DNA of 64,000 nucleotides from Micrococcales bacterium (GTDB lineage Bacteria > Actinomycetota > Actinomycetes > Actinomycetales > Microbacteriaceae): NCBI GenBank assembly GCA_024639965.1, contig JAHEGC010000011.1, forward strand, positions 12,263 through 76,262, written 5' to 3'. Made by a program: the position numbers and the translations under genes. Shown one piece after another: positions 18,436-42,839 of the stretch. The notes below the pieces were generated by a model. It ran no database searches. It was not told where the DNA came from and worked only from the letters and a program-made list of their open reading frames with translations. How positions within the stretch are numbered: the first letter of the stretch is position 1; each line of letters starts with the position of its first letter.

Positions 18436-18585
18436 GTTGTCCTTTCCGATAGTTTGTCTATCGTGTTAGTAGAGAATATAGACAAGATGGGGAAACGTGT
18501 CAAGTCGGCACGGACGGCGTGTGTCGGCGCGCCAGGTTGCCGTAACATTGAGGAGAAATTTCCCCTTCGAAAAAGGATTAGTAAC

Positions 18586-23900: not shown

Positions 23901-23907
23901 TTCGCCG

Positions 23908-24792: not shown

Positions 24793-25940
24793 CGATGACG
24801 CACGAACTGACCACCGCACCACGCCAATTTTTGGCGGACAAGATGTTCACTGGCCGAGTTTCCGCGCCCGGTGTCGAACTGGTGTGGAAATCGGACGAAC
24901 CGATCGAGGGAGGCGTTCTCGCCTCCGACCTTGCCTTCGTCAACGGCCGTTGGCTCGACCTCGAGCACTGGCGCTATTGGATTGGCAGCAAACGGCCTCG
25001 AAACAGCACCGAACTCATGGCACCCGAGGCGGTCATCAGCGTCAAAGAAGCATTTCTCGGCCCCGACAATCAAATCGTCACCGCGGGCGGCGTCACCGTC
25101 AATTCCCGCTTCTTCGGGTCGGGATTCTTCGACAAGCCGATTCCCGCGGCCAATGTCGTCGCGGAATATTCGGGAACCCACGGGAGCGCCATGCTCAACG
25201 CGCGCAACTACGGGCACTGGCTCCTGCAACGACTCCCGCGATTTGTGACACTTCACGAGCAATTCCCCGGAGTTCCCATCCTCAACTCGGTGTGGGGCGA
25301 CCAAGGGTTGCTGGCTGTCCTCGGGATCGATGAGTCGCAGATTCGCCGGTTCCCCACCAAGGACCGTGGCGAATTCGTCTACGTCGACGAACTTCTCGTT
25401 CCCACGCATCTCTCCCGCCCCGGTCTCAAGCGCGTTCAGGACAAGCACCGGATGGAGCGCATGGTGCGCTCGTACACCGCGGGGATTTCGGACGACCCGA
25501 CCCTTCCCGAATTGCTCTATGTCGCGCGACGCCCCGACGACAAACGATCCGGTGCATCGAACAAGGACGAGTTGCAGGAGTATCTCGAATCACTGGGATT
25601 CGTTACGTGGTACCCCATTGACGATTCGATCGAACGCCAGATCCAACATTTCCGAGCAGCGCGCGTGGTGGTATCGGAAATCGGTAGCCAAGCGCTCACG
25701 TCGATGTTCGCCGGATCCGACACGACCGTCATCATTCTCACCCCGGAGAAATCGAAGGGATGGGGAACGCAGCGCCAGTTCCAGCCGAAGTGGCGCCAGT
25801 GGCAGCGCGTCGTGTGCGAGGCGAGGGGCCAGCACTACGCCCAGATCGTCGCCGCGAGCGACACCGCATACCGCGCTTTCGAGCTCGACATGACGACCGT
25901 GCGACAGGCTCTCGACACCTATCCGTTGCGCACGTGGTGA
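24789..25940 (+). CDS. Glycosyltransferase family 61 (DUF563-type)
   Basis: ATGA overlap with the sulfotransferase stop. Signature NYGHWLLQRLPR, and a C-terminal segment (ARVVVSEIGSQALTSMF) typical of GT61. Confidence 0.65.
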   Translation: MTMTHELTTAPRQFLADKMFTGRVSAPGVELVWKSDEPIEGGVLASDLAFVNGRWLDLEHWRYWIGSKRPRNSTELMAPEAVISVKEAFLGPDNQIVTAGGVTVNSRFFGSGFFDKPIPAANVVAEYSGTHGSAMLNARNYGHWLLQRLPRFVTLHEQFPGVPILNSVWGDQGLLAVLGIDESQIRRFPTKDRGEFVYVDELLVPTHLSRPGLKRVQDKHRMERMVRSYTAGISDDPTLPELLYVARRPDDKRSGASNKDELQEYLESLGFVTWYPIDDSIERQIQHFRAARVVVSEIGSQALTSMFAGSDTTVIILTPEKSKGWGTQRQFQPKWRQWQRVVCEARGQHYAQIVAASDTAYRAFELDMTTVRQALDTYPLRTW

Positions 25941-26082: not shown

Positions 26083-27934
26083 CTAGATTCCCGGACGTTG
26101 TGAGCTAAGTCCCTCGTCCATTCGCTTTCGGGCGTCTCGCACGGTGGCACGGTCCGATAGTTCGGGAACACCAACCTGCCAGAATGCACCGCCTTCGGTG
26201 AAGTCGTTGGCGCGCACTTTCGTGACGATCACCGCGGTCTTGTCGGACTTACGCGCGGCGGCGAGGGCACTGGCGAACTGCGACAGACTTTCTACCTCGA
26301 ACGTTTCCGCGCCCATCGACGCGGCATGGGCGGCAAAATTGACCCGTTCGTGTGTACCTGTGCCGTTTGAGTCCGCGAGCATGTTGTTGTAGGACGCACC
26401 ACCTTGGTTCACTTGCAAGCGCTCGATGACCGCATAACCCTTCATTGTCACAAACGACGAGAATCATTTTGTGGCCGGAAAGTACGGACGCATAGATTTC
26501 AGAATTCATCATGAGGTACGAGCCATCCCCGACCATCGCGTAGACATTTCCGGATGGGCGTCCCATCGCGGCGCCCCACGCTCCCGCGATTTCATAGCCC
26601 ATGCACGAAAATCCGTATTCACAGTCGAAGGTCGCTATGCCTTTGCTCATCCAGTTGATGTTGAGTTCGCCGGGTAGTCCGCCTGCCGCTGTGAGGACGT
26701 AGTCCTCCGCTGTCGCGGATTCGTTGACCAACCCCACCAATTGCCCGTAACTGGGAGGCCAAGCCCCGTCGTCGGCGATTCGGGAGTTGACGAATTCGGC
26801 CAGATTCTCCCGCTGCTGGGCGGAACGCGAAGTCCACGCTGGATCGGCACTCCACTCACCGAGCGAAGAGCTCAATTCTTTGAGGGACTCCCGCGCATCC
26901 CCGACGACGGGGAGGGACCGGTGCTTGTGGGCATCGAATCGTGCTGCATTGATTCCAATTATCTGTGCATCGTGCGCGAAGAGAGTCCATGACCCCGTGG
27001 TGAAGTCTTCAAGTCGCGAGCCTACGGCGACCACAACATCGGCCTCGGCGACGACGGTGTTCGCCGCGGCGGCACCGGTCACGCCAAGGGGACCGGAATA
27101 CCGGGGGTGGCTCGCGAGCATCGAGGACTTGCCAGCGACGGTCTCGACAACCGGGATGCCGTGCTTCTCGGCAAAGGTCGCGAGTTCAGATTCGGCGAGC
27201 GAATAGTGAACACCTCCGCCTGCAATGATCACCGGCCGCTTCGCGTCGCGAAGTGCGTCCATCGCGCGCGCGAGTTGGCCTTGGTCAGCGCGGGGCCGCG
27301 GTCGTTCATGTACCGTTACCGCGAAGAACTCTTCGGGGTAGTCAAAAGCATCGGCGGCGATGTCCTGCGGGAGCCCGATGAATGCAGGCCCGCAATCTCC
27401 GGGGTCGAGCATCGTGGCGACCGCCTGCGGCAACGAACTGAGAAGCTGTGCGGGGTGGGTGATGCGATCCCAGTAGCGCACAACAGGGTGAAACGCGTCG
27501 TTCACGGTGATGGAGGGGACACCGAAGTGTTCGACCTGCTGAAGGACGGGATCCGGAAGCCGGGAGACGAAGGTGTCTCCTGCAATGAAGAGCACGGGAA
27601 GGCGATTCGCCATCGCTACCCCTGCCGCGGTGACCATGTTGGTCGCCCCTGGTCCGATAGACGAGGTGCAGACCATGATTTGTTGCCGCCGCGTCGCTTT
27701 CGCAAACGCTGCTGCCGCGAGACCCATCCCCTGCTCGTTCTGGCCACGCCAGACCGGAAGCTCCTCGCGATGCGTTTCCAATGAGTGTCCGAGACTGGTG
27801 ACGTTCCCGTGGCCAAAGATTCCGTAAACTCCCGGGAAAAGTGGAACGGTCACGCCGTCAACGACGGTTCGCTGTGCGATGAGGAATCGAACAAGAGCCT
27901 CCGCAGTCGTGAGTCGAATTGATTTATTTTTCAC
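26083..27934 (-). pseudogene. iolD: iolD, 3D-(3,5/4)-trihydroxycyclohexane-1,2-dione acylhydrolase, interrupted by a +1 frameshift
   Basis: ThDP enzyme. The N-terminal 498 codons (GTG 27934, VKNKSIRLTTAEALV...VVCDNEG) continue in another frame as ...YAVIERLQVNQGGASYNN... (ORF 26083..26451). Span is 1852 nt = 3n+1, and the junction is at the CCC run 26438..26440. Confidence 0.85.
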
Positions 27935-29108
27935 GAATTTCTCCCGCCAGGTCGACAACAGTTTCCCACGTCTTGGAATCCCATGAATCGATGAGTGCTT
28001 GCTGGACATTGACGACGTTGACTGCCTCACGGAAACTGGGAGAGAACGGAGCGTCCGTTGCAACGGCTTCCAGGAAGGAAAAGTCTTCGATTGCCACGAG
28101 GTCTTCGAGCCCAATCGGGTTTGCCTGGCCGGGTGAAAACGCACCGTGGAAGGGGAAACGCTCCCCACCGAAAATGGTCGTGTATCCAGAGCTGGGGTCG
28201 TCGGTCAGCTTGTAGTACTGCAACTCGTTCATTTTTTCGAGGTTCCAGGCGAGAGCGCCCTTTGTTCCGTAAACCTCGAAGGCGTTCTGACTCTCCGGGC
28301 CAACCATCGTTCGACTCACCTCGAAAGTCCCGGTTGCACCGTTCGCGAAGTTGCACAACATGGAGGCGAAATCCTCGTTTTCGACCTCACCCTTAGGGTC
28401 CTCGGGACGACCGCGTCCGTAGTGGCTCGCCGCACCCGTGGGGAGTGGCCGCTTCGGAATGGTGATGTTCTTCATGCCCACCACGTCAGTGATATCTCCG
28501 ACCAGGAATTGGGCGAGCGAAACCGAGTGACTCAAGATATCGCTCGTCACTCCATAGCCGGCTTGATCGAGGATGAATCGCCAGGTCAATAGCCCGAGCT
28601 CGTCACTTCCATACATGGATACAAAACGACCGCGGTAGTGCGTAATATCTCCCAACGCACCAGAGGCAATCAGATGACGTGCGTGGAGTACGAGCGGCGC
28701 CCACAGGTAGTTGTATCCGACGGCCGACCGCACGCCGGCCGTCGCGGCGGCTTTGTACGCCGCGACAGTTTGTTCGGGCTTTCCCCCAATCGGCTTTTCA
28801 CTGAAAACCGCTTTTCCCGCGGCGCACGCCGCTTCAATCATCGGGATGTGCAGCATGTTGGGCGCAGTGACCCAAACCACGTCCACGTCGTCGGAGTTGA
28901 TCGCGTCATGCCAATCGGCCACCGCGCGTTCAAATCCGAAATCTCGCACCGCGCGCTCGCGACGATCCTCTTCGGTGTCCGCGCAAACAACGAGTACCGG
29001 GTCGAACGACCGCTCGGGGAAGAGTGACGGAATGCGAAGCATCGACCGAGCGTGTGACTGCCCCATCCAGCCCAAGCCCAACACGGCAACGCCAATACGA
29101 CGGTTCAT
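27924..29108 (-). CDS. Gfo/Idh/MocA-family oxidoreductase (inositol dehydrogenase-like)
   Basis: ATG 29108 (MNRRIGVAVLGLGWMG, Rossmann motif) forms an ATGA overlap with the iolB stop. Lies within the iol operon. Confidence 0.75.
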   Translation of the reverse strand: MNRRIGVAVLGLGWMGQSHARSMLRIPSLFPERSFDPVLVVCADTEEDRRERAVRDFGFERAVADWHDAINSDDVDVVWVTAPNMLHIPMIEAACAAGKAVFSEKPIGGKPEQTVAAYKAAATAGVRSAVGYNYLWAPLVLHARHLIASGALGDITHYRGRFVSMYGSDELGLLTWRFILDQAGYGVTSDILSHSVSLAQFLVGDITDVVGMKNITIPKRPLPTGAASHYGRGRPEDPKGEVENEDFASMLCNFANGATGTFEVSRTMVGPESQNAFEVYGTKGALAWNLEKMNELQYYKLTDDPSSGYTTIFGGERFPFHGAFSPGQANPIGLEDLVAIEDFSFLEAVATDAPFSPSFREAVNVVNVQQALIDSWDSKTWETVVDLAGEIREK

Positions 29109-30004
29109 CGATCGCCCTTTCTGGTTCGCCCGCTCGCCGAGGTCCACGGCAATCGGGGGTCTTGCGTTTGTGTGCTCCACGAATCACGAATCCAATGGTG
29201 GCCGGGGTCATCACAGAATGCCATCGTGCGGTCTGCCGCGGGCCCGGCGAGAACGTTGAGGAAGTACATCGGGTATTCGGGTGGTGCCACAGTCGGCCCG
29301 TGGTAACCCTGAGGAACGACATACACATCGCCGTCATGAAGTGTCACGGTTTCATCAACGGTTCCGTCAACCGTGTAAACACGGAACAATCCCGTTCCGA
29401 GAGGATTCCCGTGTGGCTCTTCCTCGCGCCCGATTCGAAAATAGTAGATCTCTTCGTTATTCGTGGGACAGTCACCGATTCCGTCGTGGCGATGTGGTGG
29501 CCAGGACGACAGATTTCCGCCGGGTGTGATCACTTCACAAACGTTAATCTTGTGCGCGTTCGTGAACGACCCCGGTGTAGCAATGTTTGTGACCTGACGC
29601 GTGGCACGCCCCGCGCCTCGAACTTCGACCTGGACGTCGGCGGCGGGAATGTGAGCGACGGGGTAGACCTCGGTCGCACGCGCCGTGCAGATCGCCACTT
29701 CCCCCGAATCGCCTCGAAGTGTCACTGAGGATCCGACGGGCGCGTAAATCCAGTCAGATACCGAGTCGAACACTCCAGACCGACCCTCTAGAGTGAACTC
29801 GCGTCCGTCGATGGTGACTCGAACATCTCGTGCTGACAGCGGTATGACGACACCTTCTTCACTATCAAGTGTCAGGCTCACCGACCTATCTGAATGGAGG
29901 GTGTAAACACGGAGTCCGCTGTATTCCCACCCGGCGTTCTCGGGTGTGACATCCACATCGGCATCGCCGTTGTTCAACGAACCGGCAGGGTGAAACCACG
30001 TCAT
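29105..30004 (-). CDS. iolB: 5-deoxy-glucuronate isomerase
   Basis: IolB-like cupin sequence (GWEYSGLRVYTL..., YYFR, PQGYHGP). ATGA overlap with the upstream gene. Confidence 0.8.
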   Translation of the reverse strand: MTWFHPAGSLNNGDADVDVTPENAGWEYSGLRVYTLHSDRSVSLTLDSEEGVVIPLSARDVRVTIDGREFTLEGRSGVFDSVSDWIYAPVGSSVTLRGDSGEVAICTARATEVYPVAHIPAADVQVEVRGAGRATRQVTNIATPGSFTNAHKINVCEVITPGGNLSSWPPHRHDGIGDCPTNNEEIYYFRIGREEEPHGNPLGTGLFRVYTVDGTVDETVTLHDGDVYVVPQGYHGPTVAPPEYPMYFLNVLAGPAADRTMAFCDDPGHHWIRDSWSTQTQDPRLPWTSASGRTRKGDR

Positions 30005-30918
30005 GTCAAGCCTTTCGTACTGTGTGAAGTGTTCGGTCGAATGATCTCTGCAGCACGAGTCACAGCGCTTTCGGGGTCACCCGTTGTGGGGTACAACAGC
30101 GTTCGACCCGCCACTAAGCCACGCACATTGGGCTCGGACATCGCTGTTGCCCACAAGTCAAAAATCGAATCGGGACTCCCGCTCGGTTCGCCCCCAAGCA
30201 TGAGGATAGGCAAGGTCGTCGCGCCCGCGACTTCCGCCATTCTCACGCTCGCCGGCACCTTGAGCCACGTATACGCCGACGAGGATCCCAGCCCCGATGC
30301 GATTGCCACGACTTTGACTAGTGCGTCGTCCGAAGTGTCGAGAGTCGGAATTCCGCTTGTTCCCGTCAAATAGGGGAGTGGCTCGATGAGGGACATGATT
30401 TTGCGATCCGCCAATTCGGTAGAAATTCGAGCGACCGACTCGATCGTTCTCGCGACGCCGGGGTCCGTGGGGTCGATGCGAATAAGGGTCTTGCCGCCAT
30501 CGAGTCCCATGGATTCGACATGATCAACGTCGTACGCAGTCACACGATCGTCCAGTTCCCACGTCGCCCCGATGATTCCGCCGCGGTTTATTGTGCCGAT
30601 GGCGAGTTTGCCATCGAGCGCGCCGAGCCATGCCAACTCTTCGAGTACGTCGGAACTCCCCAAAACACCGTCAACCTCGGGCATAGCAAGACAACGCACG
30701 AGCCGATCGAGAAGAGTGTATCGATCGGCCATCGCGAGCGGTTCCGTGCCGAGCGAGATTTTCCCCCGCGCGGTGTGGTCGGCAGCCAAGATGAGTAGGC
30801 GTCCGTCCTGACCGGAAACGGAACGGCGGCGTCGTGAGACGAGTGCAGAGCCGAGCGACTCCGGCTCAAAAACCCTTGCGTCCAGAAGCGATCGGTAGGT
30901 GTCAATGTCCAGCGTCAC
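30001..30918 (-). CDS. Class I aldolase-like (beta/alpha)8 protein of actinobacterial iol clusters (probable 5-dehydro-2-deoxyphosphogluconate aldolase)
   Basis: GTG start overlaps the iolC stop. DhnA/Cgl0159-like sequence (LILAADHTARG...). Function is assigned from operon position. Confidence 0.55.
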   Translation of the reverse strand: MTLDIDTYRSLLDARVFEPESLGSALVSRRRRSVSGQDGRLLILAADHTARGKISLGTEPLAMADRYTLLDRLVRCLAMPEVDGVLGSSDVLEELAWLGALDGKLAIGTINRGGIIGATWELDDRVTAYDVDHVESMGLDGGKTLIRIDPTDPGVARTIESVARISTELADRKIMSLIEPLPYLTGTSGIPTLDTSDDALVKVVAIASGLGSSSAYTWLKVPASVRMAEVAGATTLPILMLGGEPSGSPDSIFDLWATAMSEPNVRGLVAGRTLLYPTTGDPESAVTRAAEIIRPNTSHSTKGLT

Positions 30919-31868
30919 GCGGCACTCCCCATCATCGCATCGAGTTCCGCTACATCGGGCATGGCATCTGCGCAGGTGAGTCGAGTGGACACCAACGCAC
31001 CAGCAGCATTGGCGAGTCGACCAATGTGCTCAATGTCCCATCCGTTCAACAGTCCATGGCACAGCGCTCCACCGAATGCGTCGCCTGCTCCGAGGCCACA
31101 CACAAGGTTGATGGGGATGGCAGGGATTCGAATTCGCTCGGTCGATGTCGCAAGCAGCGCACCCTCCGCCCCGAGTTTCACGATGGCGAGTCGGACACCA
31201 GTGCTGAGGAGCAGATCCGCCGCGTGATCAGGATCGTTCGTTCCCACGGCGACTTCACATTCCTCACGGTTGCCCACCACAATTGACGCTTGCGATATCG
31301 CACGTGACGCCATATCGCGGGCGGATTCGACTGTGTTCCAGAGCGAGGGCCGGTAGTCGAGGTCGAGGATGGTGTGTTGGTCATTGGTCCGCCAGCTCAT
31401 CCACTGAAGGCAGGTCTCGGCAGTTGAACCTTGCGACAGTGACGCCTGACTAATCCACAAAATCTTTGATTCGCGGACAACTTCCCCGGGAACGTCCTCA
31501 CTAACCAGGGTGGTGTCGGGTGCTGCGGTTCCACGATAGAAAATCACGGTCGGTGATTCAGGTGGAGTGAGTGCGGCGAGGGCGAGTGGCGTTTGGGAGT
31601 GAGGTTGGGATAAGACGAATTCGGTAGATACTCCCCAGGTGGCGAGTCGCGCGCGGATGTACTCTCCGAATCCGTCATCACCGACTTTGGTCGCGAGAGC
31701 AACTCGGTGACCAAGCCTGGCGGCAGCCACCGCTACGTTAGTGGGGCTTCCGCCCACAGACTTCTGAAACGTTTGTTGTCCGTTGAAACCGACATTCGGT
31801 TCCATCGCGTACAAGTCGACGCTGATGCGCCCAACGCTGAGAACCTCGAATGGAACCACGTCGATCAT
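30915..31868 (-). CDS. iolC: 5-dehydro-2-deoxygluconokinase (PfkB family)
   Basis: ATG 31868 (MIDVVPFEVLSVGRISVDLY) overlaps the upstream stop. PfkB motifs GGSPTNVAV and GAGDAFGGAL. Confidence 0.8.
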   Translation of the reverse strand: MIDVVPFEVLSVGRISVDLYAMEPNVGFNGQQTFQKSVGGSPTNVAVAAARLGHRVALATKVGDDGFGEYIRARLATWGVSTEFVLSQPHSQTPLALAALTPPESPTVIFYRGTAAPDTTLVSEDVPGEVVRESKILWISQASLSQGSTAETCLQWMSWRTNDQHTILDLDYRPSLWNTVESARDMASRAISQASIVVGNREECEVAVGTNDPDHAADLLLSTGVRLAIVKLGAEGALLATSTERIRIPAIPINLVCGLGAGDAFGGALCHGLLNGWDIEHIGRLANAAGALVSTRLTCADAMPDVAELDAMMGSAA

Positions 31869-32767
31869 CCGAGGGTTGGGGCGACGACGTCGGTGAGGTA
31901 TTGGAGGGAGGCGGCAACGTGCGTGACGGGACCTTCCCCGTCGGCGGGGAATCCTCCGGTGATTGCAGTGTCTTGCTCGATCACATACCAACCCTGATAA
32001 CCCGACGATTCAAGGGTTTGGACAACACCCAGGATGTCAACGTCTCCTTGGCCGAGAGTGGTGAAGACGCCAGCTTGAGTCGCCGACATCAGGGACACTT
32101 CGCGTCGAAGAACGGCGGGAGCCATGTCGAGACGAACGTCCTTGAGGTGGACATGGCCGACGCGGTCGAACGCGGCCTTCGCGAACTCGACGGGGTCTTG
32201 TCCCCCGAACGCCATATGTCCAGTGTCGAGACAGAAGTGCACATCACACGAGTCGAGAACTCGCTGAATGTCGTCCCTCGTTTCGACGAGCGTCTGAACG
32301 TGGGGGTGAAGAACCTGTTGGAGACCGTATTCACCACAAATTTCGTCGATGACCCCGAACATCTCGGCCATATGCTTCTGTTCCGACGGCGAAAGTGAGT
32401 GGGGATAAGACCACGACATGTCCCGTACGACAGAAGAGACAAATTTTGTCGCCCCCGCCTGTTCGAACAACCGCGCCGTTGCGGTCGCGCTGGCAATGGT
32501 CGCATCCCGCTCGGCAGGATCGTGAAGGATGACGGGGGTGAACCCTCCAAGCAGGGACATCCCGAATTCTGCGAGCTTCGACTTGAGCAATTCCGGATCG
32601 TCAGGGAGGAATCCCGGTGCGCCGAGTTCCGTCGCGGTGAATCCGAGCCCCGCCATCTCCCCGAGCACTCGGTCAATCGGTAGCATCGCCCCCCAATCGG
32701 GAACCTCACAAATGCCCCACGAAATCGGGGCAGACGCGACGCGGGAGATAAAGTCAGCCATTGACAT
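31865..32767 (-). CDS. iolE: Inosose dehydratase-like sugar-phosphate isomerase/epimerase (xylose-isomerase TIM barrel)
   Basis: Motifs APISWGICEV..., HPHVQTLVET, DTGHMAFGG, HVHLKDV and WYVIEQD resemble IolE. First gene of the operon. Confidence 0.65.
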   Translation of the reverse strand: MSMADFISRVASAPISWGICEVPDWGAMLPIDRVLGEMAGLGFTATELGAPGFLPDDPELLKSKLAEFGMSLLGGFTPVILHDPAERDATIASATATARLFEQAGATKFVSSVVRDMSWSYPHSLSPSEQKHMAEMFGVIDEICGEYGLQQVLHPHVQTLVETRDDIQRVLDSCDVHFCLDTGHMAFGGQDPVEFAKAAFDRVGHVHLKDVRLDMAPAVLRREVSLMSATQAGVFTTLGQGDVDILGVVQTLESSGYQGWYVIEQDTAITGGFPADGEGPVTHVAASLQYLTDVVAPTLG

Positions 32768-32793
32768 TCTTTCGTTGAAACGGTGGAATTAGT

Positions 32794-32813
32794 ATGTCAG
32801 AACATAATGACAT
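32794..32813. promoter_or_regulatory. Inverted repeat in the iolE/iolG divergent promoter region (candidate repressor operator)
   Basis: ATGTCA-N8-TGACAT within the 84-bp AT-rich intergenic region. A further TTGACAT lies at 32761. Confidence 0.35.
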
Positions 32814-32851
32814 TCCGCAACATTCGTCCCCAACCGTAAGAGAGGTCGCCC

Positions 32852-33844
32852 GTGAGAGTTCTGGTGATTGGAGCAGGGCGAATGGGAGCAATTCGCGTGG
32901 AAGATCTCGTCGGCGATGACCGTGTCGACGAGGTGCTCATCGCCAATCGAAACGGTCAGCGCGCAGACGACCTGGCGGCGAGGTGGGGGGCATCATCAGT
33001 TCCCTGGGAGGGCATCACAGCAGTTTCCGTCGATGCAGTCGTGGTCGCTGTCGGCACCGACGCCCACGAACAGACACTGCTCGATGTGCTTCCACGGGGA
33101 ATCCCGGTGCTGTGCGAGAAGCCAATCGCGATGACTCTCGCTCAAACCGAATCTGCCATCGAACTTGCGGAAAAAAGCGGTTCACGTCTGCAGATTGGGT
33201 TCCAGCGTCGATTCGACGAGTCGATCCGCGCCGTTCACGACATCATCGAGCACGGAGAGATCGGCACGCTCTACTCGCTGAGCATGACCGCACGTGACCA
33301 TGCACCGAGTGCTCGCGAATTCATTGCGGGAAGTGGTGGGATTTTCCGAGATCTTCATGTCCATGACTTCGACCTCGTGCGCTGGCTCACGGGAAGCGAA
33401 GTCGAGACTGTCTACGCAACCACCGCCGTCCGCGAGCACAGGGATTACTCCGACTTTGACGATGCAGACGTGAGCTCGGTTATCGCCGTGACGACATCGG
33501 GAGTTCAAGTGACAATTGGCGGTGCTCGCCACGATGCTCGAGGGCACGACGTTCGTCTCGAGGCTTTCGGATCAAAGGACTCCGTTTCCGCTGGCCTCAA
33601 CCCGCGCACTCCACTTCGACCGTTAGAAGGCGGTTTCGCCTTGTCGAACGACCCGTATCGAGGGTTTGTTGATCGCTTTCGGGAGGCGTTTAGAACTGAG
33701 ACGCAGACGTTTGTCTCTTTTGCTCGCAACGAAATCGACAACCCGTGCCCGCCGGACGCGGCTCTGGAGAGTCTCCGAATTGCGATCGCGTGTGAGAAAT
33801 CCCTTGCGACGCGGGCTTCCGTAAGGGTTTCCGACGTTCGTTAG
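32852..33844 (+). CDS. iolG: Inositol 2-dehydrogenase-like Gfo/Idh/MocA oxidoreductase
   Basis: GTG 32852 follows AAGAGAGG. Rossmann motif VLVIGAGRMG, and EKPIA. Divergent from the iol operon. Confidence 0.7.
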   Translation: MRVLVIGAGRMGAIRVEDLVGDDRVDEVLIANRNGQRADDLAARWGASSVPWEGITAVSVDAVVVAVGTDAHEQTLLDVLPRGIPVLCEKPIAMTLAQTESAIELAEKSGSRLQIGFQRRFDESIRAVHDIIEHGEIGTLYSLSMTARDHAPSAREFIAGSGGIFRDLHVHDFDLVRWLTGSEVETVYATTAVREHRDYSDFDDADVSSVIAVTTSGVQVTIGGARHDARGHDVRLEAFGSKDSVSAGLNPRTPLRPLEGGFALSNDPYRGFVDRFREAFRTETQTFVSFARNEIDNPCPPDAALESLRIAIACEKSLATRASVRVSDVR

Positions 33845-35729: not shown

Positions 35730-37406
35730 TCATTCTGCTGGCGGAACGGGCGTGGGGCAGGCGTAGACCGATTCGATCGTGAAGGTCGTCCATAAGTACG
35801 GCCGAACAACCGACGCAATCGCCGGACCACACGGCGCTTTGGGCTTCTGGCGGGTTCGACTGGACGGGAACTGAACCACCGTGTCGGCCGGCAACGTGGG
35901 TTGGCCAACCGGAGTGGCGGCGTCAAACGCGTCGGGGAATTCTGACGTGGCGGGGCAATTCGTGGTGCACGCTTCACGTTCCTCGAGAGTCAATTGCGAC
36001 CACAATTCGCCCGTCGCGAGCTTTCGGGCGAAGATGTCCCATCGCCCGTCAACACCGGTCGCAACTGTGGTCGGGTTGAAGTAACTGAATTGGTAGGGGA
36101 AGATCTGCACCTGGATCACGGTCGTCATGACCGTGGAAGCAACAAGGAAACCCACGACAGTCGGCCACAGCGCCTTGATTCGGCGCACTGCCGGAGCGGT
36201 CGACGCCAGGAAGAGGATGATCATGAGGAGCATCACGAGGCCGGGGAAGAGGAACGTAAATTGACGCAATCCGCCGTAGACCGTTGATTTCAGCAGGATC
36301 GCTGCGAGAGGGAACGCCGCAAACTGTGCGAACGTCACGACGATAGCGGGGATGGCGAAATCCCGCGCGGTGGAGTTTGAGCGGAACAGGCGGGAGAGAA
36401 CCAACCACACCGCGATGGGCGCGATGACGATTGTCAGAGCGACGACGACCTCAGGGAGTTGAGCGGCCGCCCACTTGGGCAGGTAGTACCAGGGCGGCGG
36501 GGTGCCGAGAAGTTCACCATCGGTGAGGATGTACGTGTCGTGCGGGAAAGCCGCCGTCTCCTTGAAACTCATGAACAGCAACTTCACCGGGTTGATGAAC
36601 GCCGCGGGATAGATCGCGAGCATCGTGAGATACGACGCGGCCACAGCACCGACCGGTGCGACAAGGGTTTTGACCGTCGCCCACGGGTGGGCGAAGTTCG
36701 CGAATCGAAGTCGGATGAGAAGAATTCCGGCGAATGCCAAAGCGATGGCCACCCACGTACCTGGACGGACTCCCCAAAGGATGAGTGTGCCGAAATAGAC
36801 CGCGACGAATCCTTCGATTCGACGTCGCGAATTGCTCCACGCCGCGGGCAGCGTGAGGGCGATGCATCCACTCGTGAAGAGCGTGTAGCCCGCAGCGATC
36901 GGGATGTCCTTGACGTTGAAAATCGCCGAACCCGTCCACATCGGGATTGACATGAGGAGTGCGGAGGTTGCAAGGCCCCACACTCGCGATCGGGTGACGA
37001 GGGCGACTCCCCATCCCGCCGCCGCAACACCGAGGAAGGAGAAGGCGATGACGACAAAGTGGCGGGCGGCAAATGCGGCGTCGGTTGCAGCGATGGAACC
37101 CCAGGCTTCTGCTCCCGTTGCTACGGCGACAAGATGCCCGATCAGGGAGAACAGCGGCCCATAGGAATAGGGGTATCCATTTGCCGAAGAGATGTCGAAA
37201 CCGGTGGAAGACGCCGGTGCGAGCGCGTAGACCCCGTAGGTCAGAAAAGTCTGAATCTTTTCGATGTGAATAATCTCGTCGCCGTAAAAACTGAGTCGTC
37301 CGACCCCCGCAACAGTGAGGACGGCCATTCCGGCGAGGTAGAGCCACAGCAGAGGCTCGACGGCGCGAGTCCAGCGTGACGGTAACGAGGAGTTGCGGGT
37401 GCTCAT
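35730..37406 (-). CDS. GT-C fold polyprenyl-phosphate-sugar-dependent glycosyltransferase, paralogue 1
   Basis: About 12 TM. First-loop acidic motif YGDEIIHIEK, and a C-terminal Cys-containing extracytoplasmic tail. Start is ATG 37406 or GTG 37442. Confidence 0.7.
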   Translation of the reverse strand: MSTRNSSLPSRWTRAVEPLLWLYLAGMAVLTVAGVGRLSFYGDEIIHIEKIQTFLTYGVYALAPASSTGFDISSANGYPYSYGPLFSLIGHLVAVATGAEAWGSIAATDAAFAARHFVVIAFSFLGVAAAGWGVALVTRSRVWGLATSALLMSIPMWTGSAIFNVKDIPIAAGYTLFTSGCIALTLPAAWSNSRRRIEGFVAVYFGTLILWGVRPGTWVAIALAFAGILLIRLRFANFAHPWATVKTLVAPVGAVAASYLTMLAIYPAAFINPVKLLFMSFKETAAFPHDTYILTDGELLGTPPPWYYLPKWAAAQLPEVVVALTIVIAPIAVWLVLSRLFRSNSTARDFAIPAIVVTFAQFAAFPLAAILLKSTVYGGLRQFTFLFPGLVMLLMIILFLASTAPAVRRIKALWPTVVGFLVASTVMTTVIQVQIFPYQFSYFNPTTVATGVDGRWDIFARKLATGELWSQLTLEEREACTTNCPATSEFPDAFDAATPVGQPTLPADTVVQFPSSRTRQKPKAPCGPAIASVVRPYLWTTFTIESVYACPTPVPPAE

Positions 37407-37416
37407 TTCAGACACG

Positions 37417-39486
37417 TTATCGAATCGCCGCACTCGAAACACCCGCGAAATGGATGTCGCTGACGTGAAGAGTGTTGGTTACGGGCGCACCGGCATCGTC
37501 GGAGAGCACAAACTCGATGACGACGCTCGACGTTGACGAACGCGAGATAACGCTGGCCGGGAAGGTGACGACGAAATCGGTCACCATGTCGGCGTCGATC
37601 ACGTCTGTGACCACGGTCTCCCCATTGACCGTGGCAGACACGACGACCGATTCCGCTGAACCACTGCTGACACGGACCTCGAACGTTGCCGAACGCGCGG
37701 GCTCGCCCGAGTCGACCGTGTCACTCCACGCGATTGCGGCGGGTGAACCGGCGGCGGTTGAGACGCCGTCCTCGTTGGCAAGTTGCCAACCCCAATGAAC
37801 GAGTTTGCGCCACCAGCTGGTCGAGCGCGGAGATGAAACGGCATCGGCCGATTCGAGTGGTTCGCCAGTGACGGGGCAATCGAACACATAAATGAGGTCG
37901 AGTGAACTCCAGAGATAGGGTCGCGACACCGAATGAACCTTGTCGCAGTGGCTCCAGTGTTTGGTCGTCGGACCGCGCGACAGGGAGATGCCATGATCGA
38001 ACGGCATCACGGTTCCACCAGTGGGGGCCACGAGATACCGGTCGGGGTAATCCTTGACGTTGCAGTTCTCGCAGTGTTCGCGTTCACTCGCGCTGAGCTG
38101 ACCGTAGGCTTCCCCCTCGACGAGCTCCCATCGATCGACCTCCCAGCGCCCCTCGATACCGCGCGAAAAGGTCGTCGGGTTGAAGTAATTCATCTGGTAC
38201 GGGAAGAGTTGAATCTGGATGACCGTGGTCACGGCGGTCGACGCGACGACGAGACCGACGATGGCGGGCCACACAAAACGGAAGCGACGCACGTTCCACG
38301 CGGAGACGAGGAGGAACAGGAACAGCGTCACCAGCATCGCCGTCGCGGGGATCACGAAAAGGAACTGCCGCAGCCCCGACGTGATTTTCGCACGAAGGAG
38401 AATGGCGGCGAGGGGGAATGCTGCGAATTGCAGGAAGATGAACACGATCGCCGGAAGGGCAAAGTCGAGTTTGTGCGGCGCCGATGAGAAAACACGCTTG
38501 AGGACGAGCCACACGCTTACCGCGGCCGCCGCAATGGCGAGAATGAGGATCACTTCGGGGAGCTGCGCCGCCGCCCACTTGGGGAGGAAATCCCACGACG
38601 GCGGTGCCGTCGGCCATTCGCCGTCCGTGATGCTGCCGCGACGGGTGGCGAAATCGGAGGTGTCGGCGAAGCTCTTGTAGAGAAGCCGGACGGGGTCGAG
38701 GAACACGACCGGGTAAACGATCATCATCGTGGCGTAGGCAGCGAGGAATGCGCTCACGGGCATCACCATCACCCGAGCGGTCGTCTTCCACTCGGTGAAG
38801 TTCGCGAGTCGCGCGTGAATGAGTGCAATCGCCATGAACGCAATCGCAATCGCGGGCCAGAGGCCGGGGCGAACGCCCAACATCACCAGCGAGCCGCCGT
38901 ACAGCGCAAACCACCCACCGAGTCGCGTTCGCTCACCTCGGTGGTCGGCGGGAAGCGTGAGCGCGATGCAGCCGGCGGTGAAGAGCGTGAATCCGGTGGC
39001 GGCGGGCATGTCCTTGATGTTGAACATCGAGAACCCGGTCCACATCGGAATCGACACGAGCATCGCACTCGCGGCCAAACCCCAGGTGCGCGAACGAGTC
39101 ACGATTGAGATTGCCCAGCCGGCAGCGAAGACGCCGATAAAAGAGAAGAGCGCGACGGCGATGTGTCGGGCGACGAACGCGGTGTCCGTTGTTGCGACCG
39201 TGCCCCAGGTTTCAGCTCCCATCGCGACCGCGATCGCGTGTCCGACGAGAGAGAAGATGGGGCCGTAGACGTAGACAAATCCGGCGACGTTGACGGGGGC
39301 GCCGCTGTCGTCCACGGTGACGATGCGGGAATAGAGGCCGTGATCGAGGTAGTTCTGGAGCTTGTCAATGTGCACGTACTCGTCGAGATAGTGGCTCTGA
39401 AGCCCGACGCCCGAGAGGGACATCGCAAACATCGCGAGGATGTAGGCGAGAAGCACCCACGGAATAAATTTGGCCAGTCGAGTCAT
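37417..39486 (-). CDS. GT-C fold glycosyltransferase, paralogue 2, with an extra C-terminal domain of about 146 aa
   Basis: Roughly 60% identical by eye to paralogue 1 across the TM core (YLDEYVHIDK, FNIKDMPAATGFTLFTAGCIALTLPA). Start is ATG 39486, or alternatively 39513. Confidence 0.7.
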   Translation of the reverse strand: MTRLAKFIPWVLLAYILAMFAMSLSGVGLQSHYLDEYVHIDKLQNYLDHGLYSRIVTVDDSGAPVNVAGFVYVYGPIFSLVGHAIAVAMGAETWGTVATTDTAFVARHIAVALFSFIGVFAAGWAISIVTRSRTWGLAASAMLVSIPMWTGFSMFNIKDMPAATGFTLFTAGCIALTLPADHRGERTRLGGWFALYGGSLVMLGVRPGLWPAIAIAFMAIALIHARLANFTEWKTTARVMVMPVSAFLAAYATMMIVYPVVFLDPVRLLYKSFADTSDFATRRGSITDGEWPTAPPSWDFLPKWAAAQLPEVILILAIAAAAVSVWLVLKRVFSSAPHKLDFALPAIVFIFLQFAAFPLAAILLRAKITSGLRQFLFVIPATAMLVTLFLFLLVSAWNVRRFRFVWPAIVGLVVASTAVTTVIQIQLFPYQMNYFNPTTFSRGIEGRWEVDRWELVEGEAYGQLSASEREHCENCNVKDYPDRYLVAPTGGTVMPFDHGISLSRGPTTKHWSHCDKVHSVSRPYLWSSLDLIYVFDCPVTGEPLESADAVSSPRSTSWWRKLVHWGWQLANEDGVSTAAGSPAAIAWSDTVDSGEPARSATFEVRVSSGSAESVVVSATVNGETVVTDVIDADMVTDFVVTFPASVISRSSTSSVVIEFVLSDDAGAPVTNTLHVSDIHFAGVSSAAIR

Positions 39487-39550
39487 CGGATCGCTCTTTC
39501 GGGTTGCGGGCATCGAACGAACGGGATGCAACTCATCGTGCCGTGAAACG

Positions 39551-40525
39551 TCACTTGATGGGTCGCGTGCGAACCTCAACCGAACGGTTGCGCTGGAACA
39601 CCTGGAGTTCGGCGAGAAGGCCGAAGACGAGAAGTTGAATGCCGACCACGGTGAGGAGAACTCCGATGGTCAGAATCGGTCGATTGCCGATCGTTTCGTC
39701 GAGGAAGATGCGGAGAATCGACACGTAGACGAGTATTCCGACTCCGCCGAGGAGCGAAAGAACACCGAACGCACCAATGAGATGCGAGGGGCGGCTCTCG
39801 TAGGCAAGAAGAAAGCGAATCGTGACGAGGTCGATGAAACCGCGCCAAAAGCGCGCGAGACCGTACTTGCTCTTGCCGAGAAGGCGCTTGCGGTGGGTGA
39901 CGTGCACCTCGGTGATGCGGTAGCCGAACCACGACGCGATGACGGTGAGGTAACGGTGCATCTCGCCGTACATCATCGAACCGACGGCCTGCGCAACGGA
40001 AAGGCGCATTACCTTGAATCCAGAGTTGAAATCTTTGCCCTTGACACCCGAGATGGCCGAGGTCGTGGCGTTGTAGAGCTTCGACGTCGTGCGCTTGATG
40101 AAACGGTCGTTGCGGGTGTACCGCGCACCGGTCACGAGGTCATAACCCGAGTCGAGCGTGGCGATGAGCGCCTCGAGCTCGGCGGGGTCGTCTTGCCCGT
40201 CCGCGTCCATCATGATGACGATCTGCCCACCGCGCTCCTCCGCGAGAGCGAAACCGCGCTTGAGGGCGGCCGCCTTGCCCAGGTTGCGGGGCATCGATTC
40301 GCCGATGATTTGGGGGTGCTTCTTCGCGAGTTGGGCGATCGCATCGACGGTGCCATCGGTCGAACCGTCGTCGATGATGATGATTTGGAACTTCGAGTCG
40401 ATTTTCGAGATGTACGAGATGATCTCGGGGACGACGTGGCCGAGGTTTTCCGCCTCGTTATAGGCAGGAATGACGATGACGCAATGACGAGGCTTAGCCA
40501 AAGTAGAATCCAATCTAAGAATCAC
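39551..40525 (-). CDS. Polyprenyl-phosphate glycosyltransferase (GT2; GtrB/ArnC/Dpm1-like)
   Basis: Motifs VIVIPAYNE, IIIDDGSTDGT and DADGQDD (DXD), plus two C-terminal TM helices. The start may be TTG 40501 rather than GTG 40525, because the first 8 codons are AT-rich. Confidence 0.85.
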   Translation of the reverse strand: MILRLDSTLAKPRHCVIVIPAYNEAENLGHVVPEIISYISKIDSKFQIIIIDDGSTDGTVDAIAQLAKKHPQIIGESMPRNLGKAAALKRGFALAEERGGQIVIMMDADGQDDPAELEALIATLDSGYDLVTGARYTRNDRFIKRTTSKLYNATTSAISGVKGKDFNSGFKVMRLSVAQAVGSMMYGEMHRYLTVIASWFGYRITEVHVTHRKRLLGKSKYGLARFWRGFIDLVTIRFLLAYESRPSHLIGAFGVLSLLGGVGILVYVSILRIFLDETIGNRPILTIGVLLTVVGIQLLVFGLLAELQVFQRNRSVEVRTRPIK

Positions 40526-40743
40526 GCCGTGGCATCACGACGTGCCAAATATAGCACTTGGGCGTTGTGCCGGCGGGGATGTCTCGTCGCCATATCGGGC
40601 ACTGGTGCGGGAATTGACGAAAGTTGAGCACGGTCATGGTGTCTCTCAGTGCGCTCGCGTGGCGATCGGGAATTTGGGCTCCCGCCTACCGTCTCGGGGC
40701 GCCGTGGCGTATTCCCGGCCGCTCGAACGACGGCATCCTTCCG

Positions 40744-41472
40744 ATGTTCTCGATCTCTGGTTGCGGGCACGGCGGCACCACCCTTCTCGCGACGATTCTC
40801 GGCGCACACCCCAGCACCCACCTTTTCGACCGTGAGACGAAGTGGTTCCTCGGGCTCGGGCCACTCGCGGTTCTGCGAGAGAACAAGGCGCGAGCAGCGA
40901 TGGCAGCAAAGAATTTCTCGGATGAGACACGCGTCATCATCGAGAAGACTCCCCGCCACGTCTTCCGTATTCCGTACATTCGCCGCATCATGCCCGGCAC
41001 GCGATTTGTCGTAATGGTGCGCGACCCGCGTGACCTCGTCGCCTCGATCGCGAAGCGCATCTCCGATTGGCGTGGTGCCATGGTGCGCGTGCGCCTTGAT
41101 TTCCTTGCCATCAACCGCGTGAAGAACGACAAGGATGTGCTCGTCATCCGCTACGAAGATTTGGTGCGCAACTTCGAGCCAACGATGAGCAAAATCTCGG
41201 AGCACCTCGGCATCGAGTTCGACCAGCGGATGGCGAACCACACCGAGTTCGCCCCGACCTGGTTCAACGCGGACACGGTCGAAGAGACGGATGGCGCGGG
41301 CAAGAAGGCGCACGTTTCCCGCCGAGCCTGGCAGGTTCAGCAACCGTTGTACGACGGGAGTGGACGTTACCGCACCGATCTCACACCGGAACAGATTCGC
41401 GAAGTCGAAGACGCGTTCAGCCCGCTGGTCGCCGACTTCTACCCCGAAGTAGTTCGGCACGAACCCGTCTAA
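40744..41472 (+). CDS. Sulfotransferase family protein (atypical 5'-PSB loop)
   Basis: ATG 40744 (MFSISGCGHGGTTLLATIL). 3'-PB is VRDPRDLVAS (R-x7-S). The antisense 312-aa ORF is rejected. Confidence 0.75.
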   Translation: MFSISGCGHGGTTLLATILGAHPSTHLFDRETKWFLGLGPLAVLRENKARAAMAAKNFSDETRVIIEKTPRHVFRIPYIRRIMPGTRFVVMVRDPRDLVASIAKRISDWRGAMVRVRLDFLAINRVKNDKDVLVIRYEDLVRNFEPTMSKISEHLGIEFDQRMANHTEFAPTWFNADTVEETDGAGKKAHVSRRAWQVQQPLYDGSGRYRTDLTPEQIREVEDAFSPLVADFYPEVVRHEPV

Positions 41473-42419
41473 GGTCGGCGGCGCAACCGCAGACGCATCG
41501 CCCCGTAGAGGGCGGCGACGATTCCGTCGGCAAAGGTGGAATACAGTCGCACGACGATTGAAATCGTGATTGCGTCGACCACGCTGACCCCGAGAGCCGA
41601 CACGATGGCGACGAACGCCGCCTCACGAACACCGATTCCGCTCGGCACGAAAACTGCCCAAACGCCGATGGCGCTCGCGATTGTGTAGGCGGCCGCGATG
41701 GTCACGAGATCCCAGAACGTCGTTCCCGCGGGCAGAATCGACACCGCGAGGAATCCCACGCCAACCCCGTTGACGACGCGCGGCAGGGTGTAGCCACCGA
41801 CAAGGCGCGCGATGGCGACGAGGGACATGTGGGGGAGCGACCGAACGTCGTCCATCTTCCGCATTTTTGCGATCTTTGTGACGACGGGGTTGACCAGATA
41901 TCGAATCGCGACGAGACCCGCTACGGCGGCGAGCACAAGAAGCCCGCCATAGACGACGAGCGATTCGTTGGTGATGAGTTCGGCACGGGCGATGACAATC
42001 GCGACGATGGCACCGAGAATCGAACCGGTCTGCATGAGCGCAAACTCGTAGAAGAAGGCGAGGAATCCCACGGAGGTGCGCACGCCCTCCTTGGACGCCC
42101 AGTTCACCTTGAACAGGGGCTGCGCGACGCTGGGGATGTAACGCACCACCCACGAGCCGAGGTGCGCCGCCGTCGCCGACCACCAACCGATGTGGCGCTC
42201 GCCGAGGGCGCGGAGCACGAGCTGCCACAGCCAACCGGACACCACGACCGATCCCGCGAAGAAGAACAGCGACGACACTTCGGCTGGGCCGACCCGAAGG
42301 TCGTAGCCCTGCACGCGTTCCCAGTTGGAGGCGAGGGTCGACGCGAAGAAGTAGCCGACGGCACCAACGAGAGCGACCATCAACGTCAGGCGTAGAGCCT
42401 TGCGGAGCGTGGGGGACAT
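41469..42419 (-). CDS. Flippase-like membrane protein (UPF0104 / lysyl-PG-synthase TM-region family)
   Basis: 316 aa, about 8 TM, basic C-terminus. This family commonly accompanies GT2 polyprenyl-phosphate glycosyltransferases. Confidence 0.6.
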   Translation of the reverse strand: MSPTLRKALRLTLMVALVGAVGYFFASTLASNWERVQGYDLRVGPAEVSSLFFFAGSVVVSGWLWQLVLRALGERHIGWWSATAAHLGSWVVRYIPSVAQPLFKVNWASKEGVRTSVGFLAFFYEFALMQTGSILGAIVAIVIARAELITNESLVVYGGLLVLAAVAGLVAIRYLVNPVVTKIAKMRKMDDVRSLPHMSLVAIARLVGGYTLPRVVNGVGVGFLAVSILPAGTTFWDLVTIAAAYTIASAIGVWAVFVPSGIGVREAAFVAIVSALGVSVVDAITISIVVRLYSTFADGIVAALYGAMRLRLRRRP

Positions 42420-42515: not shown

Positions 42516-42839
42516 TCAGAGGAAGGGTCGCAATTCGACACGGCGGTTGCACGCGCGCGAACCCGCTTCGGCGAGCCCCCGAGCTTCATCGGCCGATTCG
42601 ACGTCGATGATCCAGAATCCGCTGTAGAAATCAGGTCCGTCGAACAGTGAACCGGCTCTCGAATCATCGTGTCCGTCGCGATTATCGATCAACGTTGCGG
42701 TGGACGGTGCGCCAATTCCGGCCGCCATCACCCACTGCCCATCGCGCTGAAGCCGATCATTGAAAGCATCGATCGCTGAGATTTCCGCGCCGGTACCGGA
42801 GTTCGAGATGGAATCGATGACGTAGATGACGTAGCGCAT
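42516..42839 (-). CDS. YciI-family protein
   Basis: 107 aa with a YCII-related pattern (MRYVIYV..., GPDFYSGFWIIDVES..EA). Confidence 0.7.
   Translation of the reverse strand: MRYVIYVIDSISNSGTGAEISAIDAFNDRLQRDGQWVMAAGIGAPSTATLIDNRDGHDDSRAGSLFDGPDFYSGFWIIDVESADEARGLAEAGSRACNRRVELRPFL

Follow-up and report, generated by a model that had tools for sequence, protein, structure and literature searches.

The subject of this analysis is a cassette of five genes at positions 35730-42419 of a 64,000-nt stretch of DNA (the window) from a Micrococcales bacterium of the Microbacteriaceae (assembly GCA_024639965.1, contig JAHEGC010000011.1, positions 12,263-76,262 of the forward strand). The genes encode two GT-C-like (glycosyltransferase fold C) membrane proteins, P1 and P2, a family 2 glycosyltransferase (GT2), a sulfotransferase, and a membrane protein of the PF03706 family. 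On balance, the cassette is best read as a system for extracytoplasmic glycosylation that incorporates a swappable tailoring step in the cytoplasm.

Three of the genes form a series on the minus strand. P1, the short GT-C-like protein (558 aa), is encoded at 35730-37406, and its long paralogue P2 (689 aa), composed of a P1-type core and a C-terminal extension, is encoded 10 nt away at 37417-39486. The GT2 gene (324 aa) occupies 39551-40525. A divergent spacer of 110 bp (40526-40635), the presumed promoter region, separates it from the plus-strand gene for a 278-aa sulfotransferase (40636-41472), which converges with the minus-strand gene for the 316-aa PF03706 protein (41469-42419). An earlier note on this DNA had described five open reading frames (ORFs) on these strands, and all are present, as is the 4-nt overlap of the two convergent genes at their stops (41472 versus 41469). 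Of the intergenic gaps it reported, that of 10 nt stands, while that of 64 nt between GT2 and P2 holds if P2 starts at Met32 of its ORF and shrinks to 37 nt if it starts at Met23. The divergence of the sulfotransferase from GT2 is likewise correct, but the distance of 218 bp is replaced by 110 bp once the sulfotransferase start is moved from 40744 to 40636. A scan for consensus promoters and terminators returned nothing above the shuffled background, the 110-bp spacer included.

P1 and P2 share 49% identity over 541 aa (E 6e-169). Both carry an acidic motif after the first transmembrane helix (YGDEIIHIEK in P1, YLDEYVHIDK in P2) and four family-conserved cysteines in an extracytoplasmic tail. 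Neither has a match in Pfam (E<=0.01) or in NCBIfam, and searches of PDB sequences with phmmer and hmmsearch found no match for P1 or for the family profile and a single chance-level match (E 0.55) for P2. An AlphaFold2 (AF2) model of P1 built with 35 homologues (predicted local distance difference test score, pLDDT, 75.9; predicted template-modeling score, pTM, 0.83) contains about 11 long transmembrane helices, and the loop that follows the first of these holds helices at residues 42-57 and 84-96. When this model was compared with the PDB by Foldseek, the ten best matches were all GT-C enzymes (STT3, ArnT, DPY19, AglB, AftB, ALG12, and PglB) with probabilities of 0.98-1.00 and E-values of 2e-4 to 5e-2; every lower match had a probability below 0.4.

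Remote homology points in the same direction. A profile of 63 family members, which are 21-67% identical to P1 (mostly 23-30%), aligns in HHalign with P0266 at a probability of 99.6% (E 9e-24), and P0266 carries the PMT_2 domain (46.7 bits, cutoff 26.1). With the PMT_2-related protein P0265, the profile aligns at 99.9% (E 1.9e-33) over 404 columns, which span the acidic motif such that D43 and E44 of P1 pair with the "WDEP" of P0265. The link of P1 and P2 to PMT_2 (PF13231) is transitive only, via these two intermediates; a Pfam scan of the 63 members at E<=1 lists 25 families, none of which is PMT_2. Glucos_trans_II (GtrII, PF14264) matches 7 of the 63 members weakly, at a best E-value of 0.0025 that falls short of the membership threshold, and does not match P1.

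D43 and E44 are at least 90% conserved across the 63 sequences. The other family-conserved positions are YxYGP, R115/H116, P.WTG..FN.KD, G.RPG, PPPW.YLP, G.RQ, and the four tail cysteines. The N-terminus of P1 holds three lysine or arginine residues and no aspartate or glutamate, whereas the first loop holds one basic and five acidic residues. By the positive-inside rule the N-terminus is predicted to lie inside, with the loops rich in lysine and arginine alternating on the inner side; given this orientation, the conserved motifs all lie on the predicted outer face. Membership of P1 and P2 in the GT-C superfamily is supported by the Foldseek matches of the model, the PMT_2-linked profile homology, and the predicted outer-face motifs. 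The earlier description of two GT-C paralogues with acidic first-loop motifs and cysteine-containing tails thus gains support at the level of fold and remote homology, and the searches of profiles and structures that it called for place the proteins within the GT-C fold and outside the PMT_2, GtrII, and Emb/Aft family models. The concern that P1 and P2 might be housekeeping enzymes of the Emb/Aft type is not borne out, as neither matches Arabinose_trans, AftA, or a related Emb/Aft model in Pfam or NCBIfam; AftB appears only as a weak Foldseek match at rank seven for the P1 model (E 1.5e-2, TM-score 0.36).

The extension of P2 distinguishes the two paralogues. In an AF2 model of the last 258 aa of P2 (pLDDT 82.5), a β-sandwich is formed by approximately residues 567-689 (37420-37788, minus strand), which Foldseek matches to carbohydrate-binding modules (CBM36, CBM16, and CBM28), domain III of Cry toxins, and BcsB, at E-values of about 1e-4 and target-normalised TM-scores of at most 0.55. 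In this model, the C-terminal part of P2 resembles a carbohydrate-binding module (CBM); P1 lacks such a domain.

GT2 matches PF00535 (Glycos_transf_2, E 1.2e-29) and aligns over its whole length with Escherichia coli ArnC (29% identity over 308 aa, E 2e-42). Its best solved relatives among PDB sequences are ArnC (7e-36), GtrB sll0501 (8e-28), and archaeal DPMS (3e-15). The translation contains the DXD-like motif MDADGQDD and two hydrophobic C-terminal segments, at approximately residues 246-277 and 281-311, predicted as transmembrane helices. The score of 136.8 bits against the NCBIfam ArnC equivalog model (NF007986) lies far below its cutoff of 529 bits. On this evidence GT2 is classed as a polyprenyl-phosphate glycosyltransferase of the ArnC/GtrB/DPMS type, as had been proposed, and not as an ArnC orthologue. 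The location of such an enzyme directly upstream of P2 and P1 would fit a polyprenyl-phosphate sugar as their donor.

The sulfotransferase belongs to PF13469 (Sulfotransfer_3, E 2.8e-20, 73.9 bits against a cutoff of 27) and is of the type that uses 3′-phosphoadenosine 5′-phosphosulfate (PAPS). The motifs GCGHGGTT (5′-phosphosulfate loop) and RDPRD..S (3′-phosphate) are kept in the alignment of its orthologues, hereafter type A, and no transmembrane segment is found, as expected for a soluble protein. The orthologues also keep about 36 residues rich in tryptophan and arginine that are N-terminal to the methionine first chosen as the start (MVSLSALAWRSGIWAPAYRLGAPWR..., 40636-40743). Because this N-terminus is conserved, an ATG is present at 40636, and gene calls for the closest database relatives have this same length of 278 aa at 100% coverage, the gene probably starts at 40636 and not at 40744. 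The stretch is absent from the type-B sulfotransferases and from phage homologues; speculatively, it might tether the enzyme to the membrane interface, in keeping with a substrate on a lipid carrier. Homologues that are 37-39% identical to type A and lack the N-terminal extension are encoded on two phage-like contigs with many small ORFs and matches to Phage_VG64, HNH, and Pyr_excise (L093:5697-6395 and L094:7001-7711). The L093 homologue is surrounded by genes for GT1, GT2, GT25, and methyltransferase enzymes, a setting that suggests phage-borne modification of surface glycans.

The last of the five proteins is a multi-helix membrane protein in which PF03706 (LPG_synthase_TM/UPF0104) is matched over residues 15-297 (E 6.3e-12) at 46 bits, above the gathering score of 33.4, in agreement with its earlier description as a UPF0104, flippase-like protein related to the transmembrane part of lysyl-phosphatidylglycerol synthase. 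PF03706 is its only domain; as the aminoacyl-phosphatidylglycerol synthase domain of MprF is lacking, the protein falls outside the MprF family. In archaea, PF03706 proteins encoded beside an AglD-like GT2 and a PMT/STT3-like protein have been predicted to act as glycosylation flippases (PMC5898192).

About 80 related loci were collected, some of them with a hand-made DNA pattern for P.WTG...FN.KD, and their genes were mapped with local hidden Markov models (HMMs); flank counts refer to the 23 loci whose flanks reach at least 1.5 kb in both directions. The trio of GT2, GT-C-like, and PF03706 genes recurs among these loci, often with 4-nt gene overlaps. A GT2 gene is found no more than 4 kb from the GT-C-like gene in 17 of the 23 loci and is joined at that distance by a PF03706 gene in 11 of them, with PF03706 slightly farther away in two more. 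All 11 of the loci with nearby GT2 and PF03706 genes also contain a tailoring gene. The commonest layout in distant loci is GT2, one or two GT-C-like copies, Methyltransf_24, and PF03706; consecutive genes overlap by 4 nt in two of these (L016 and L018), and the same order is found in approximately 15 further loci. Two layouts occur in the Microbacteriaceae: nitroreductase, PF03706, PS_pyruv_trans, GT2, and GT-C-like (L002, L009, L010, and L072), or a sulfotransferase-PF03706 pair that diverges from GT2 and GT-C-like (L001, L006, L015, and L095). A further type of tailoring gene is found in L054 (4912-6795), where a fusion of GT1 and a class I methyltransferase lies directly upstream of PF03706, GT2, and GT-C-like genes. 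Members of the long, P2-like type follow GT2 in L002, L009, L010, L015, L016, L018, and others.

The five-gene grouping is not due to chance, since the same families adjoin in dozens of independent metagenomic loci. When the conservation of the neighborhood was checked, the trio was found to be kept and one slot to vary, exchanging a methyltransferase, a pyruvyltransferase, or a sulfotransferase. The pairing with a PAPS-dependent enzyme, which had struck the earlier note as unusual, is consequently not a one-off but one of several interchangeable options in a conserved slot. Nor are the sulfotransferase and flippase-like genes missing from this neighborhood in all relatives, an absence that would have counted against the reading of the earlier note; both recur near GT2 and GT-C-like genes, and the type-A sulfotransferase lies beside GT2 and PF03706 in all five bacterial loci with known context (the window, L001, L006, L015, and L095).

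The proposed mechanism draws on the logic of three-component glycosylation, in which a GT2 makes an undecaprenyl phosphate (Und-P)-linked sugar, a flippase moves it, and a GT-C enzyme decorates a polymer outside the membrane (PMC11127046). The assignment of this logic to the present genes, already made in the earlier note, is supported by fold, remote homology, and gene context. What the analysis shows is the identity of the domains, a GT-C fold with remote homology for P1 and P2, a predicted topology, and the conservation of a neighborhood with an interchangeable slot. GT2 would use a nucleotide sugar to glycosylate polyprenyl phosphate at the inner face of the membrane, after which the soluble sulfotransferase would modify the lipid-linked sugar. 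The PF03706 protein, by analogy to the flippase domain of MprF, would move the lipid-linked sugar to the outer leaflet, where P2 and P1 would transfer it onto an extracellular acceptor. P2 probably acts on a wall polysaccharide bound via its CBM-like domain, and P1 may serve a second acceptor or form a second linkage. The catalytic activities, the sequence of the steps, and the identities of the sugar and the acceptor are what we infer from these features.

The position of the tailoring step within this pathway is suggested by two lines of reasoning. PAPS, S-adenosylmethionine (SAM), and phosphoenolpyruvate (PEP) are cytoplasmic cofactors, so tailoring, and with it sulfation of the donor, would take place before export. 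The GT2 proteins are 70-98% identical regardless of the modifier, and an enzyme that is near-invariant whatever the tailoring gene presumably handles the same unmodified sugar. The PF03706 proteins, in contrast, split into clades that are 32-36% identical and mostly track the type of modifier. Given the near-invariant GT2 and the divided flippase candidates, the most economical order is synthesis by GT2, tailoring, flipping, and transfer by the GT-C enzymes. ArnD, which acts on undecaprenyl phosphate-4-deoxy-4-formamido-L-arabinose (Und-P-Ara4FN), is an instance of tailoring on a lipid carrier. Sulfation and transient methylation occur on dolichol-phosphate-linked glycans in Halobacterium (PMC4335974), and CsaB pyruvylates a lipid-linked disaccharide rather than the UDP-sugar (PMC6030368). 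As to the acceptor, the CBM-like domain of the P2 model favours a polysaccharide, while the PMT-like acidic motif may be compatible with protein O-glycosylation. A bolder version of this reading can be held only tentatively: that a widespread, unannotated GT-C family defines a four-part cassette, found mainly in Actinomycetota, in which a monosaccharide on polyprenyl phosphate would be decorated in advance within the cytoplasm, flipped by the PF03706 protein, and transferred ready-made to the cell surface. The same tentativeness attaches to the nature of the decoration, which would be a sulfate in the window and pyruvate or methyl in relatives.

Several observations weigh against a glycosylation system with a cytoplasmic tailoring step. 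P1 and P2 lie below every Pfam threshold, the TM-scores of the P1 model in Foldseek are modest (0.33-0.43), and the family profile gives no signal in HHalign against a single E. coli ArnT sequence (0.75%). Many members of the GT-C-like family, all of the short type, stand alone with no GT2 or PF03706 gene nearby; their recurrent neighbors have no Pfam matches and may be spurious ORFs. The nearest solved relatives of the sulfotransferase are human TPST1 and TPST2, albeit weakly (E 1.3e-5 to 1e-4 over about 110 residues). Its gene is convergent with the PF03706 gene and divergent from the GT2 operon, such that co-expression is not guaranteed. The association between flippase and modifier may stem from the joint inheritance of neighboring genes and not from substrate specificity, and the comparison comprises a small sample that is not phylogenetically independent. 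The window is itself the exception to it: its PF03706 protein, at 56-59% identity, falls as a divergent member into the pyruvyl-type clade although it is encoded beside a sulfotransferase, and it shares only 32-35% identity with the PF03706 proteins that usually accompany type A.

These points feed different alternatives. The strongest competitor, though rather unlikely, leaves the trio to act as proposed and has the sulfotransferase work, still in the cytoplasm and ahead of export, on the acceptor glycan or on some other lipid-linked oligosaccharide instead of the lipid-linked monosaccharide; the gene, like the methyl- and pyruvyltransferase genes of relatives, would then owe its place in the locus solely to a surface polymer that both activities have in common. 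In its favor, the neighborhood in relatives also includes a DegT aminotransferase, another sulfotransferase, and a GT61 enzyme (GT61 is a family of nucleotide-sugar-dependent transferases), which points to a larger glycan-building locus. The separate transcription of the window sulfotransferase from the other four genes and its pairing with a pyruvyl-type PF03706 protein speak for this alternative as well. The distant loci argue otherwise, since there the tailoring gene is wedged between the GT-C-like and PF03706 genes with 4-nt overlaps, and the flanks available show no further genes for glycan assembly. Also against it stand the restriction of bacterial type-A orthologues to sites beside GT2 and PF03706 genes, and PF03706 clades that mostly follow the modifier while GT2 does not.

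Two further alternatives are considerably less probable. P1 and P2 might not be glycosyltransferases but a polymerase- or ligase-like enzyme, a transporter, or a scaffold that shares only the general multi-helix architecture; the silence of the curated models and the modest TM-scores leave room for this, and yet it is very unlikely given ten best structural matches that are exclusively GT-C followed by a sharp drop, HHalign probabilities of 99.6-99.9% to PMT_2-linked proteins, the acidic motif after the first transmembrane helix, the tight coupling to a polyprenyl-phosphate GT2, and a CBM-like domain in P2 as in Emb, AftD, and GT136. Marginally less likely still, the sulfotransferase could be a TPST/RaxST-like enzyme for tyrosines of proteins or peptides, or for small molecules, that shares no mechanism with the glycosylation genes. 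PF13469 is a broad family, the best PDB sequence matches are to the human TPSTs, and the phage-like contigs carry the 37-39% identical homologues without the trio; against this stand the weakness and shortness of the TPST similarity, the presence of GT2 and PF03706 beside all five bacterial orthologues of known context, and the sugar-modifying families (e.g., PS_pyruv_trans) that fill the slot in relatives.

A close parallel to extracytoplasmic glycosylation with cytoplasmic tailoring is the Arn pathway, which adds aminoarabinose to lipid A in E. coli and Salmonella (ArnB, ArnC, ArnD, ArnE/F, and ArnT). Both employ a polyprenyl-phosphate GT2, of which ArnC is the closest solved relative, and each has an enzyme in the cytoplasm that modifies the sugar on its lipid carrier ahead of export (for the window, as proposed), followed by a flippase and a GT-C transferase. 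The tailoring enzyme of the Arn pathway is the deformylase ArnD, in contrast to the sulfation proposed for the window. A DegT-family aminotransferase, the family of ArnB, is found nearby in relatives of the window locus. The flippase ArnE/F is of the SMR type rather than PF03706, and P1 and P2 are not ArnT, as judged by the profile comparison given above and by the lack of a match to PF02366 or PF13231. The GtrA/GtrB/Gtr* system of O-antigen glucosylation and the systems CsbB/GtcA/YfhO and GacI/J/L of Gram-positive bacteria follow the same three-component logic, and a few family members weakly match GtrII. They differ in that their GT-C enzymes belong to another family and in the extra tailoring enzyme of the present cassette; no GtrA-family match was obtained in the five genes or in two small upstream ORFs.

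The archaeal trio of AglD-type GT2, UPF0104, and PMT/STT3-like arCOG00563 (Makarova et al. 2015) unites these classes of protein as well, PF03706 being the predicted flippase (PMC5898192). It is a prediction concerning protein N-glycosylation, whereas the window genes are bacterial and found mainly in Actinomycetota; in the window, PF03706 is unfused to GT2 and a variable tailoring gene is added. GT136 (ORF12 of Citrobacter youngae) is a GT-C enzyme with a C-terminal CBM that adds pentofuranose side chains from polyprenyl phosphate to a finished polysaccharide, and Emb and AftD carry CBMs as well (PMC11127046). P2 likewise ends in a CBM-like β-sandwich, a likeness seen at the level of architecture. 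In the GT136 system, a polyprenyl phosphoribose synthase makes the donor from phosphoribosyl pyrophosphate (PRPP) and a MATE protein flips it (PMC11127046), roles that would be taken here by GT2 and the PF03706 protein. To PMT and PMT_2 enzymes (GT39, GT83-like), P1 and P2 are related by remote but significant homology via the PMT_2-bearing intermediates and by the aspartate-glutamate pair in the first outer loop. This pair is a hallmark of protein O-mannosyltransferases. P1 and P2 differ from these enzymes in scoring below the PMT_2 threshold, in lacking MIR domains, and in possessing a cysteine-containing C-terminal domain of their own. The cassette is set apart from the Arn and Gtr systems and the archaeal trio, which it otherwise resembles in its working, by a GT-C enzyme outside the curated models, a flippase candidate of the PF03706 family rather than of the GtrA, SMR, MATE, or Wzx type, and the interchangeable slot.

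Three-component glycosylation systems account for much of the surface diversity seen by phages, predators, and immune systems. The cassette points to a large GT-C branch missed entirely by current annotation and makes it possible to test in bacteria a prediction of long standing, by which stand-alone PF03706 proteins are flippases for lipid-linked sugars. A slot that swaps sulfate, pyruvate, and methyl would be a simple genetic route to altered surface charge in abundant freshwater and soil Actinomycetota. If the reading is true, a polyprenyl-phosphate sugar sulfate as glycosyl donor would be new bacterial chemistry, and the role of PF03706 in bacterial glycan decoration would be the first demonstrated. 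The genes are also concrete targets for asking whether bacteria make sulfated lipid-linked monosaccharides.

The GT-C-like family is large. An exhaustive profile search returned 2451 representatives at E<=1e-3, 959 at E<=1e-10, and 228 at E<=1e-30; no tested member has a Pfam model for its core, and the names given by the sources are in every case "hypothetical protein". The taxa named comprise metagenome-assembled genomes (MAGs) of freshwater Microbacteriaceae, Gulosibacter, Pontimonas, Candidatus Nanopelagicales, Nocardioides, and one Flavobacterium MAG, and the guanine-plus-cytosine content across the loci ranges from 36 to 77%. Some members (P0054, P0063, P0064, P0067, and P0078) bear an N-terminal extension of 200-240 aa without a Pfam match (e.g., L018:1432-2100); given the lack of a match, the idea that these extensions are fused GT2 domains was rejected. 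C-terminal add-ons differ as well (Laminin_G_3 in P0096, DUF7024 in P0076, and pentapeptide repeats in P0252), which suggests that acceptor-binding modules vary among members.

The window locus appears to have a composite history. P1 groups with short orthologues (64-66% identity) whose genes in relatives lie by themselves behind the inositol operon, some 11 kb away from the cluster, while P2 belongs to the long clade that follows GT2. Given these distinct clades and separate sites, the P1/P2 tandem is best explained as a secondary juxtaposition of old paralogues. A recent tandem duplication is rejected on the grounds of tree and synteny; of the duplicated module envisaged in the earlier note, the paralogy remains, but it is old. 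The TetR-like gene that neighbors the GT-C-like gene in relatives was not found beside the window cluster, and for KatG, which in relatives lies beyond it, the interval from P1 to the acetoacetate-CoA ligase gene leaves no room and holds no equivalent. No remnants of nitroreductase, pyruvyltransferase, or methyltransferase genes were found in the window. The window GT2 is 88-89% identical to the GT2s of sulfotransferase-type loci; with a PF03706 protein of the pyruvyl-type clade, the locus is by sequence a mosaic that looks like a recombinant of two cassette types. Such an origin fits the odd convergent arrangement of the sulfotransferase and PF03706 genes.

Outside the cassette, a satellite module on the plus strand, assigned by Pfam, encodes a DegT aminotransferase (22827-23900), a type-B sulfotransferase (23908-24792), and a GT61 enzyme (24789-25940). 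In L001, L006, and L009 this module abuts GT-C-like genes; in the window (22827-25940) it is split from the cassette by an inositol-catabolism operon (26249-33844). The pairing of DegT with a sulfotransferase hints at a sulfated amino sugar. Farther from the cassette, an 800-aa ORF at 18454-20856 (plus strand) is matched by no Pfam family at E<=0.001. Upstream of the PF03706 gene lies a small YCII-related ORF (42516-42839, minus strand; PF03795, E 3e-6), at the place where relatives hold a gene of the nitroreductase family.

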